DNA of 63,075 nucleotides, counting the filler, from Rhabdomonas costata (Eukaryota), in NCBI GenBank assembly GCA_019059605.1. It is 40 parts of 40 records of this genome, joined end to end, with 100 filler letters (N's around TTAATTAATTAA, not from the genome) between each part and the next. Parts side by side here need not be neighbours in the genome. Positions count along the whole stretch, not along the records: positions 45,814 to 47,292 come from JAHMHO010014881.1; positions 47,393 to 48,872 come from JAHMHO010014882.1; 38 more parts are not named here. One strand, written 5' to 3'. Each line of letters starts with the position of its first letter. Position 1 is the first letter of the stretch. Position numbers and translations under genes: made by a program. The notes below the pieces were generated by a model. It was not told the DNA's origin and ran no database searches. It saw only the letters and a program-made list of their open reading frames with translations. This document shows, piece by piece, positions 47,203-50,551 of this stretch.

Positions 47203-47749
47203 GTGTTGCACCCACACTTTACTTCGCTTTTTGTTGTTGTTGGGTTCCGACCTTGTTAGTGGTGCCTTGGTTTGCCACCCACCACCCAAACANNNNNNNN
47301 NNNNNNNNNNNNNNNNNNNNNNNNNNNNNNNNNNNNTTAATTAATTAANNNNNNNNNNNNNNNNNNNNNNNNNNNNNNNNNNNNNNNNNNNNGGGGGTGG
47401 TTGGAAAGGTCGTCTCAGACCGAGGGAGAAGCCAGAAATCAGGAGACCGGAAGGGGCCGTTCCGGAGCCGCCTGCGCCGCAAGATTCGACCGAGAGCGTT
47501 GGAGATGAGGTCAAGGAGCTTCGAAGGTTGCAAGAAGTGTTGATAGAACGACCTAGAGACGGCGAAGAAGGGTATGAAGAGTGGTTGAAGCAGGCCAGAG
47601 CATCTAAGGAGGAGTTGACTGGCCGGGGAAGTCCAGAAGGTCACCGGTTAGGTGCTATGCAGTCATATGGTGTGGGAGAAGACGCTCATGGAGAGATAAT
47701 GCAAAGAAGGCTTCCGGGAAAGCACTATAAGCCGGTGTTCAGTCCGGAA

Positions 47750-48192
47750 GAAGAGGTGAAGTTAGACTCTCGTGTTTTTGGAGAGGCACATGTCACATGT
47801 CACAGGCTGTTGGTAACACCGTGCATGGATTTGTCCAAGAGGCATAACCAGTTGCCGAGGTATTTTACGGCAGAGAAGGGGGATGAGGCAGCGCTAGGAT
47901 GTAACTCATTCGCGTATGAGTGGAGTCCAGAGGTTTGCTTGTACGCAAATCCTCCGTTGAGTTTAATCCCTTTGGTGCTGAAGAAGATTTGCAGAGATTA
48001 AAGGCGAGTGTTTCTAGTTACGCCAAACTGGACGTACGCACCTTGGTTTCATCTGTTGGAGTAAATTACAGTGCGGATGTGTTGAGAGGAGGTAAGCTTT
48101 ATTTGTCAGAGAATTTGGAGCTGAGGCCCTTGCCAATGTGGCCGACATTGTTTTAGTTCATGGTCGGTAAAGAATTTGAGGGGGTGGTGTAA
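47750..48192 (+). pseudogene. Second decayed Dam-type N6-adenine methyltransferase, homologous to 6653-7075
   Basis: PCMDLSKRHNQLPRYFTA...CNSFAYEWSPEVCLYANPPLSLIPLVLKKICRD*RRVFLVTPNWTYAPWFHLLE*...GKLYLSENLELRPLPMWPT; NPPL at 47948-47959; stops at 47999 and 48062 plus a frameshift. Confidence 0.85.
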
Positions 48193-48741
48193 CAAGAGGC
48201 GATGTGAATAGAGCTTGGAGAATTATGGATTGAGAAGTTACGGAGCCTGAGAATGCGACTGTGCAGCAGAAGGATCTTCAGAGTTGATCCAGAGAGGTGG
48301 TTGCGGAGCAGTCGATATCCTTTCTTTCTTGAGAGTGAGCGGGAGAGTCATTTTTTGTTGTTTCTTTTTCAGGAGTTGCTGGCGAAGAGGATACACAGAG
48401 GAGTTCATCTCAGAGGAGGCTTTATGCGGTGGAGGTTTGGGTATTGTGGACGTGGAGGAGAGAACGTTGTGTCGTAAGGCTTGTGTCAGTGTGTGAGTGC
48501 TGATCAAGTGTGCTGACTAACTACTCAAGATTTGAGTGTGTGGTAGTCGAGCAGAGTGGCGTGTTGGCGGAAGAGTGCAGCTGAGCGAGGCTTTGCAAGA
48601 TGCCATCAAGCTATCAAGCAGTCATATGGCGGAGTTCGGAGATGTGGTTGTGTGAATGTCATGGTCCATGCGCGTGATGTTCAGAGCTGGACAGTCATGA
48701 GTGATCGGCCGTCCCCCGTCTGTTGGGACGTTCTCCGTCCT

Positions 48742-48872
48742 AGCAGGGGAGCGTGTAACGGTCCAGGTCACCCAGGTGTTCCTCATTCACGAGTTAGATA
48801 GCCAGGACATCAAGGTGTTTCCAGAGACTAGTTTCCAGAGGTTTCATAGAGATTCCATAGAGCCAACAACAA
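48742..48872 (+). mobile_element. Candidate polypurine tract and start of a 3' LTR
   Basis: TTGGGACG...TAGCAGGGGAGCG|TGTAACG with TG at 48754 resembles Ty3/Gypsy PPT-LTR junctions; an alternative GAGGGGGTGG|TGTAACA lies at 48178-48194. Confidence 0.4.
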
Positions 48873-50176
48873 NNNNNNNNNNNNNNNNNNNNNNNNNNNN
48901 NNNNNNNNNNNNNNNNTTAATTAATTAANNNNNNNNNNNNNNNNNNNNNNNNNNNNNNNNNNNNNNNNNNNNGGGTGGGGGGTAGAGCTAGAAAATGACG
49001 CATGAATCATCCGGACCTTGGCAAGCATTCGCACTGCAGGGTGCAGTAGCTGTTCAATATAAAATGTTCAATCCCTGAATTATAATAGTGGCCTTGCAGA
49101 AAAGAACCCCGTTTCTGGGGCCAGAGCGTAGAGCCCCGCAAGCAGAAGCAATGAAAAGGGCGGAGAAGTGAGAGAGAAAGCCGCACCGGTTCCTATCCCG
49201 TTACAGATGGCTAAGCTATGAGGCCACTGATCCCCACTGAAAGTCCAAATAAGAACGTTCATTCAAACAGAGACATACCAGCCGCTGTAGCAAGGGGATA
49301 GCGTAGGCCAAGGTTTTTCCTGTATGTTGAAATGAGCAGACTGTGAAGTTCAGTGAATAACTGAGCGTGGCCTTTCATTGTCGCTCTGCCTTTCATTTTC
49401 ATGCGGTTATTGCAGATCATACACAAATTCCTTCAGTTCAAGTCAAGTAATTTATGGCGATGCAATACTTTCAAAATTCTGATAAAAACAGAATAATGTA
49501 TGTGCTGTGGAAAATCTTGGCGTCAACCAAACTACTTGAGTAAGCCGGTACCAAAACAGAAGCCCCAGGAGAAATATTGCTTCAAGGGGATGAGATGAGA
49601 TGAGCTGATAAAGGTTGCTGGTTAAAAATACGAATGAATGAGTGGAAAAATCACCAGACGAGGACTATTGGAGTCAGGGGACGTCGCCTGGATGCCAGAA
49701 ATAGTGGTGTTGCGTTGCATGTGGACAGAAAGTGGCATGGCCAAGGTGGAAAAGGTGTCAGTAGAGAAGAGCCTCACCAAGGTCATTGCCCCATCAGTTT
49801 CACCATGGAGACCATGGAGCAAAAAAAAAAAGTAAAGAGAGCGGAAAAAAAGCAGCGTTTTCGCTCGCGTGGCGTGCGAAATGTTGAATTCTGGGGGGGG
49901 GGACTTTTATTATTTTGTATGCTGATAGTGCCAGCAGTTATTTTTTGTCAGTTCAGAATGGGCTGCTGCAAAAAGTGACCATTAAAACTGCCGTGTCACA
50001 TTTTATTTTCTATGGTGTGCCTTTTATGCGCTTCTTTTAGGAACTATTATTACTACTTTTAGAGTTATGAGATGAAGGGAAAGATGTGATTACCATCTAC
50101 CGTAAATTTTGAACATAGAGGAGCATGTCAGCAACACGTTAGACGTGTGAGAGCAAAGTTCCGAGCAAAAGCATGC

Positions 50177-50399
50177 CTGAGCCTGTCTCGGACTTAATCA
50201 GGACGTCACCTTCCCCCATCATAGGCTTAAAGGAGTCCACTTGGATCGGAGTCAGGCGGGTAATCCCGAACTTACCTAGGCTCTGCTTCAGCCACGGGTG
50301 CAGGGGCAGGGACTCCACAGCCGGCGCAGATGCTGGCAGCACCCCACAGGTTTCCATAGGTTTCGCCTCCCGCCGCCCCAGCGGCTCCGCGTTCAGAAA
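50177..50399 (-). CDS. DEAD-box RNA helicase exon (Q motif and start of motif I; DDX31/DBP7-like)
   Basis: LPLHPWLKQSLGKFGITRLTPIQVDSFKPMMGEGDVLIKSETGSG; CAG acceptor, CAG|GC donor splitting GSG-KT. Confidence 0.85.
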
Positions 50400-50551
50400 C
50401 TGAATTTCTCGCGACCCAACCACGTGCAACTACCCAGCGCACACCACAACCNNNNNNNNNNNNNNNNNNNNNNNNNNNNNNNNNNNNNNNNNNNNTTAAT
50501 TAATTAANNNNNNNNNNNNNNNNNNNNNNNNNNNNNNNNNNNNNNNNNNNN

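Follow-up and report, generated by a model that had tools for sequence, protein, structure and literature searches.

The question raised by this locus is whether a decayed adenine methyltransferase (MT) gene, lying at the 3′ end of an apparent retrotransposon, belongs to an LTR element or to the DIRS group, and what such a domain might do there. The window, i.e., the whole 63,075-nt stretch of DNA analysed, consists of 40 unlinked contigs of ~1,480 nt each with N spacers between them. The feature is exactly one of these contigs (G000:C14882, 1,480 nt) in a genome assembly of 97.2 Mb and 104,289 contigs (G000), and since it stands alone between N spacers, the neighbouring window sequence is unlinked to it. 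We are highly confident that the contig is a chimeric fragment from the 3′ end of a Ty3/Gypsy retrotransposon, now dead, that belongs to the DAM-LTR kind, the host being a probable euglenozoan. Its features are listed below.

47393..47737, plus strand: C-terminal stretch of the acidic/Pro-rich linker between the integrase (GPY/F domain) and the MT in pol; open in frame +1
47738..48192, plus strand: decayed DIRS-type (Dam/PCIF1-like) N6-adenine MT domain, recognised by its motifs and ~90% DNA identity to copy L006
48188..48193, plus strand: TGTAAC overlapping the pol stop codon, no LTR edge; none of 25 informative copies has a break at it
48193..48674, plus strand: family A 3′ internal region with short ORF remnants and an internal deletion near 48650, from homology and comparison with L005
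48352..48372, plus strand: pyrimidine tract followed by CAG, splice-acceptor-like; same kind of site in 5/5 own-genome families
48675..48753, plus strand: 3′ untranslated region and polypurine tract (PPT, 48743-48753) of sister family B/F, from alignments
48754..48872, plus strand: first ~120 nt of the sister family B/F 3′ LTR (TGTAAC...), cut by the contig end, from alignment with the PPT/TGTCAC junction

The window copy and the joint in its contig

All the N6-adenine MT motifs quoted in the earlier note can be read in frame +1, counted from 47393: QLPRY (47849-47863), NSFAYEW (47903-47923), YANPP (47942-47956), KKI (47981-47989), LVTPNW (48014-48031) and APW (48038-48046). The decay is equally plain, with premature stops at 47999-48001, 48062-48064 and 48154-48156, a frame change near 48081, 9 extra nucleotides at 47789-47797, a 6-nt gap near 47835 that takes out part of the DLFAS motif, and a replacement of the W in NPPW. 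Six ORF pieces of the contig gave no Pfam match at E≤1. The natural pol stop is the TAA at 48190-48192, within the TGTAAC at 48188. The ~115 codons upstream of the MT are acidic/Pro-rich linker and, as had been noted, lack an RNase H ending; the reported purine skew is also there (purine fraction 0.58, against a range of 0.41–0.61 over the 40 contigs; 492 G vs. 255 C). The window copy itself cannot make an enzyme and, as a dead chimeric fragment, adds little; the other copies carry the argument.

A DNA search of the genome gave 352 candidates, of which 40 were scored, with 45 matches at 71–95% identity besides the self-match. The MT frame is open in copies L004 and L006, and the MT protein of the latter is referred to as P0001. 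The earlier note had read two TGTAAC sites, at 48188 and 48754, as junctions between a purine tract and an LTR. TGTAAC occurs 13 times on the plus strand of the ~59.6 kb of called bases in the window, and the contig holds a third copy, not listed in that note, at 47900 within the MT coding region; the junction claims therefore needed a test on other copies. Among the 28 other copies across 48188, three start too late, 24 continue into MT coding sequence and one diverges ~16 nt upstream. The site at 48188 does overlap the natural stop, but as an LTR edge it was rejected, since homology passes straight through it in 24 of the 25 informative copies and none of them breaks there. The second site fared better: 48754 aligns with the PPT/TGTCAC junction of family A, and a similar LTR start lies on L003 next to an unrelated flank. 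It is a true PPT/TG junction, but one that belongs to a sister family, joined on near 48675.

Homology to other family A copies extends to 48650-48672, and the last ~200 nt of the contig match another abundant family instead (196 candidates, best matches 92–96%). Of 39 other scored matches of this tail, 38 begin at 48674-48695, only the contig itself matching from query base 1, and the join from family A to B/F is in no other scored copy. Near 48675, where the switch falls, the two families share a short microhomology, GATGTT. The LTR of the tail also lies on L233, together with RT and a family B RNase H, and the region upstream of it matches family B contigs, which most likely makes it part of a sister family that carries an MT too. 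Taking the contig as one intact family A 3′ end was accordingly abandoned, its last ~200 nt coming from another family. Template switching during reverse transcription and an amplification artefact would both fit the switch; no bridging of it was found among the best 27 of ~500 Logan contig pieces, drawn from four runs that all come from one sample.

Inversion or fold-back joints were seen within contigs L014, L021, L024, L025, L042 and L194, and most window contigs start G/T-rich and end C/A-rich. Both suggest amplification artefacts of the assembly, presumably of the kind left by whole-genome amplification.

An MT domain at the end of a Ty3/Gypsy polyprotein

Two walking steps upstream of the MT pass through the acidic Pro-rich linker and reach, in turn, a GPY/F (SH3_Tf2-1) domain, the integrase core, a zinc finger and finally RNase H. 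The integrase core (rve, E=8.5e-8 on L140) and SH3_Tf2-1 (E=1.5e-11 on L147) both lie upstream of the linker, which in family A spans ~400 aa between GPY/F and MT. A stop-free in-frame overlap chain of pieces from five copies, L147-L127-L068-L020-L006, drawn from 16 contigs compared, runs from the integrase C-terminus to the MT with overlaps of 36–83 aa at 80–97% amino acid identity, and in family B the GPY/F domain, linker and MT share a single contig (L157). The remaining pieces are RNase H followed by integrase on L149, RT-RNase H on L233 with an RNase H of family B, and a gag with a weak Ty3_capsid match (E=7e-4) on L279. No G000 contig examined holds a whole element, and the family A layout is tiled from short contigs, several of them with inversion joints (L014, L021, L024, L025).

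Longer proteins from elsewhere hold the same arrangement in one piece. The 24 longer homologues include two single-ORF integrase-MT fusions, P0002 and P0003, with an MT identity of 61–63%, and a 1,763-aa polyprotein, P0005, in the order PR-RT-RH-IN-MT. The metagenome locus L264 encodes gag and a 2,295-aa stop-free pol ordered as in P0005, and reaches its contig end before any 3′ LTR. Moreover, the best 30 of the 150 scored RT loci are all Gypsy-like (50–74% identical to P0005, at most 33% to RTs of DIRS layout). The earlier suggestion of a Ty3/Gypsy LTR lineage with an MT at the 3′ end of pol thus holds, the overlap chain and single-ORF fusions placing it after a DDE integrase. Its idea of the MT as separate cargo does not: by the same evidence and contig L157, the MT is an in-frame C-terminal domain of the integrase.

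The long acidic linker is dispensable, since the relative P0009 (341 aa) has its MT almost directly behind GPY/F. A motif IPP-x-(V/L)R-x-W/x-(I/L) was seen by eye to recur in the otherwise unalignable integrase-MT linkers of P0002 (~640-655), P0003, P0005, P0008 and family A (L068, L060).

Downstream, family A runs ~0.8–0.9 kb past the MT to a GAGCAGGGGAGGG/TGTCAC junction. Of 29 family A contigs with an LTR start, 24 have PPT/internal sequence upstream of it, four have unrelated flanks and one is uninformative. The 3′ edge of the LTR is TCTGACA, followed by diverse flanks, and the four contigs with both ends give an LTR of ~1.14–1.30 kb bounded by TGTCA..TGACA. A primer-binding site (PBS), TGGTAGCAGAGG, starts 2 nt past the LTR end in 16/16 pattern matches, compared with 0 for a reversed control, and a gag-like ORF follows the family A 5′ LTR and PBS. 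We take this PBS to be of the initiator-Met type; a search of the genome for the initiator tRNA gene pattern gave 0 matches. One solo LTR (L104) has CTCAG on both sides, a single case of a 5-bp target duplication; the other three of the four two-ended LTRs are 3′ LTRs and so cannot show one. The family therefore has what defines Ty3/Gypsy elements: sharp-edged TG..CA LTRs, PPT, PBS, target duplication (in that one case) and pol order. Its layout, as tiled from these sequences, is very probably LTR, PBS, gag, pol (RT, RNase H, integrase with GPY/F, acidic linker, MT), 3′ region, PPT and LTR.

The leader after the family A 5′ LTR was seen to carry, before gag, repeats of a degenerate LTR-end/PBS unit (..GTGACA NN TGGTAGCAGAGG..) ~70–90 nt apart (L279, L280, L282, L285, L290).

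It is hardly credible that the locus is an ordinary DIRS element, or that an MT of DIRS origin came to lie beside Gypsy sequence through chance nesting or an amplification artefact. The DIRS/Ngaro layout is RT-RH-MT (Poulter and Goodwin, 2005, as cited in PMC4738411 and PMC5890265). The MT is indeed homologous to 15 proteins of that order (P0011-P0025; E 2e-14 to 4e-4), and the assembly has chimeric contigs, the window contig itself being one. However, numerous contigs, from more than one family and also from unrelated metagenomes, repeat the link from integrase through linker to MT. As the earlier note had proposed, the layout is not that of DIRS: RNase H is not directly upstream of the MT, the ~400-aa linker, GPY/F and integrase intervening, and what follows the MT is a 3′ region and then the PPT and LTR, with no tyrosine recombinase ORF. 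The check between a DDE integrase with LTR and PBS and a tyrosine recombinase, also proposed there, thus turned up the former around the MT family. Unlike in DIRS/Ngaro elements, the MT follows a DDE integrase, within TG..CA LTRs accompanied by PBS, PPT and the 5-bp target duplication. In a 44-row tree, 29 LTR-side MTs form a long-branch group apart from the 15 RT-RH-MT proteins at 100/100; its rows were all gathered by similarity to P0001, its DIRS label means RT-first domain order alone, and for some rows on the LTR side the contig lacks an integrase. Genome-wide, the tyrosine recombinase profile PF00589, which may miss divergent DIRS recombinases, gave two matches among seven candidates, both bacterial-looking. 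The DIRS reading is therefore rejected on layout, RT identities, the tree split, the PF00589 result and the target duplication.

Of the two recombinase matches (L211:18-230 and L212:133-270), one is AT-rich and joined to host-like DNA and the other GC-rich, beside a transporter-like ORF; contamination or chimeras are the likely source.

Selection, fold and the region past the stop codon

Searching the genome with P0001 gave 514 MT candidates, of which 150 were scored, and by sequence at least five families can be told apart among them (A to E), mostly 55–65% identical to A within the MT. In nine copies compared, pS between families is 0.63–0.89, i.e., near saturation, and pN is 0.18–0.28; copies of one family have similar pN and pS, as dead copies should. 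On these sequence comparisons, the MT is under purifying selection between the five sister families. The DLFAS and NPPW residues are nearly invariant in 34 aligned sequences, and N93, P95 and W96 are invariant in 16 LTR-type sequences. The Dam profile (PF05869), put forward earlier as a check, did match the open copy, but only weakly: P0001 scored E=0.0059 and 16.7 bits, below the cut-off of 28.1.

An AlphaFold2 model of the MT, computed from the 34-row alignment, reached pLDDT 93.2 and pTM 0.89. Its top Foldseek matches are human and zebrafish CAPAM (PCIF1; TMq 0.63, E 6.5e-5), followed by KsgA/DIMT1, and all 12 matches at E≤0.001 are one or the other. VIA-align over 48,161 chains also placed CAPAM at the top (Z 11.2, rmsd 3.5, 147 aligned), 2.2 above the next match at 9.0, with T4Dam at Z 8.1 and EcoDam at Z 7.7. 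The traits of a class I SAM-dependent N6-adenine MT are recognisable (Rossmann-like fold, SAM motif, [N/D/S]PP[Y/F/W]), in degraded form in the window copy. Because selection between families, the confident model and the fold matches agree, the domain is a genuine N6-MTase fold kept by active lineages.

About 100–180 nt past the MT end, all five families carry the acceptor-like tract represented by 48352..48372, in a region where their sequences are otherwise unlike. With a motif rule that was set after the sites had been seen, its shuffle fractions are 0.03–0.13, and it is found 0 times in five MT-coding controls. In metagenomic loci (13 of 23 taken, two dropped as too short), the motif is present in 8 of 11, where ~4.4 are expected, a weak excess. 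A long ORF lies beyond the tract in families B, C and E and in loci L260, L263, L264 and L265; family A has only short remnants of it. Coordinates past the MT stop include L164:612-1883, L163:876-1712, L263:1279-3042 and L260:1056-2075, a further case being on L160. We infer that this 3′ ORF may be a separately spliced or trans-spliced gene, for which a site of the 48352..48372 type would be the putative acceptor.

By eye, the B and C versions of the ORF look homologous. The ORFs of L263 and L260 match each other at E about 1e-30, the only such match between metagenomic versions, and own-genome and metagenomic versions have no similarity; the extra ORFs could not be assigned convincingly to a Pfam family, and Atlas gave no usable match. 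Treating the family A remnant as the end of the family B/F ORF was rejected, tblastn giving only E≥0.28. On L153 and L159, an extra ORF is also found upstream of pol pieces, and these are read as rearranged copies. Gypsy elements with extra ORFs are known in general; none of six papers listed in a literature search dealt, by title and beginning of abstract, with trans-splicing or extra ORFs in LTR elements of euglenids.

Possible function and relation to known elements

What the MT domain does in DIRS and DAM-LTR elements has been an open question for about twenty years. Our preferred answer, held tentatively, is that it deposits N6-methyladenine (6mA), either on the reverse-transcription intermediate or on the newly inserted copy. 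The MT would be made as the last Pol domain, in the slot that chromoviruses use for a chromodomain; by established Ty3/Gypsy biology, extended here by inference, it would be packaged in the particle with RT and integrase. It might then stay with the integrase on the new cDNA in the pre-integration complex and methylate adenines of the intermediate or the fresh insert, after which 6mA maintenance by the host could keep the insert transcribed. The conserved catalytic motif and the 6mA enrichment that a preprint reports for three species favour DNA methylation; the Dam score under the Pfam cut-off, the CAPAM fold match, the negative E. coli assay and absent expression effect in E. gracilis of that preprint, and the view of Iyer et al. 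on DIRS1 MTases count against it. As to host enzymes, PF05063 (MT-A70) has three matches on two contigs, METTL3/14-like by reading, and AMT1 was not recognised in the incomplete assembly.

Since the nearest solved fold is PCIF1/CAPAM and not T4 Dam, RNA as the substrate, or no substrate at all, is a live rival. The domain might be a silent or weak nucleic-acid- or chromatin-binding module that helps the integrase in cDNA binding or targeting, much as a chromodomain would; we regard this as possible, though on the unlikely side. Its position at the integrase C-terminus behind GPY/F and its size of only ~150 aa suit such a role, Iyer et al. propose for the MTases of DIRS1 a role as inactive binders or as mimics of PCIF1, and a heterologous E. 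coli assay of related domains was negative. The near-invariant DLFAS and NPPW residues, the invariant N93/P95/W96 and the purifying selection argue against silence, although SAM or adenine binding alone could also explain the conserved motifs. Methylation of RNA, e.g., at cap-adjacent or other adenosines of the genomic RNA in the particle, in the manner of PCIF1/CAPAM, where it would aid translation, stability or packaging, is in our view a less probable role still. CAPAM is the top fold in both structural searches with rRNA N6-MTases behind it, the placement of DIRS1 MTases in the PCIF1 clade by Iyer et al. points the same way, and the negative E. coli result for DNA would be accounted for if the substrate were RNA. 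A shared fold, however, does not show function, identity to CAPAM is 13–18%, and a preprint discussed below groups the domains with prokaryotic DAMs and finds 6mA enriched on DNA. The ~150-aa MT presumably has no counterpart of the helical cap-binding domain of CAPAM.

A bolder combination, quite improbable, would be that in this Gypsy clade an active CAPAM-like MT at the integrase C-terminus marks the element’s own RNA or an RNA:DNA intermediate and not dsDNA, with the conserved acceptor, possibly through spliced-leader trans-splicing, serving to express a third protein. If true, such a retrotransposon would write an RNA mark of its own, and what is called the “DAM” domain in DIRS and DAM-LTR elements would be reassigned. 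The fold result makes RNA and hybrids candidate substrates, which could explain the published negative DNA assay. With at least five diverged families whose catalytic motif is under purifying selection, beside many other Gypsy RTs, the genome is a reasonable setting in which 6mA and expression could be compared.

Chromoviruses are Ty3/Gypsy elements with a chromodomain at the integrase C-terminus. The present elements resemble them in RT-RH-IN order, GPY/F, an extra domain at that C-terminus and a PBS that seems to be of the initiator-Met type, but the domain is an MTase fold and no Chromo match was found in P0002, P0003, P0005 or the L264 pol. Neither Chromo nor DNMT, as traits of EpiLTRs, was found in these four or in the scanned part of the 3′ ORFs. 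CAPAM has WW and helical cap-binding parts that are absent from the MT here. PCIF1/CAPAM (PDB 6IRW, 6IRX) is the best structural match and shares the NPP-aromatic motif and, according to Iyer et al., the MTase clade; in their view, DIRS1 MTases derive from PCIF1 and their copies are likely inactive. In contrast to PCIF1/CAPAM, at 13–18% identity, the present MT is a small domain fused to an integrase.

The earlier note considered the locus the best candidate for an undescribed system, and here it was overtaken: DAM-LTRs, with the same 6mA-marking model, are already described (Fernandez-Moreno et al., 2026, bioRxiv 10.64898/2026.05.21.726589). That preprint reports DAM domains in Ty3/Gypsy elements of five lineages, including Euglena gracilis, which group with prokaryotic DAMs in a tree. 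Insertions of DAM-LTRs carry more 6mA in E. gracilis and in two ichthyosporeans, DAM domains expressed in E. coli gave no gain of 6mA, and in E. gracilis there was no expression effect. The only clade whose DAM position is given in its main text is Chloro-Ochrophyta, where the domain lies between RT and integrase. The element described here encodes a Dam-like domain with an NPP motif in a Ty3/Gypsy pol and is a new member of the DAM-LTR group. It shares with the group the DIRS-derived Dam-like domain, the NPP motif with flanking aromatics, the five-strand core, the proposed 6mA function and a probably euglenozoan host. Compared with the main text of the preprint, it differs in the place of the MT, which comes after the integrase and a long acidic linker, and in the acceptor-like site and extra 3′ ORF, which are unmentioned there.

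The host assignment was approached through two markers. A profile search for the paraflagellar rod family PF05149 (17 candidates) gave nine matches above the cut-off on seven contigs, and this family is not known outside Euglenozoa; the host is probably euglenozoan. The uL3 exons gave a mixed picture, with 6ZJ3, which we take to be the Euglena ribosome, best for one exon, ninth for the second and absent among the 60 matches listed for the third. One uL3 exon (L214:777-983) has an in-frame TAA at the expected residue, an assembly error or a pseudogene. Elsewhere in the window, 50139-50429 on the minus strand looks by eye like an exon of a DEAD-box helicase-like gene (..GDVLIKSETGSG..). Contig L038 (G000:C949) holds a rearranged family A piece in which the LTR is joined back to the MT start, and this piece adjoins exons that, by eye, resemble an ADP/ATP carrier with GT-AG introns.
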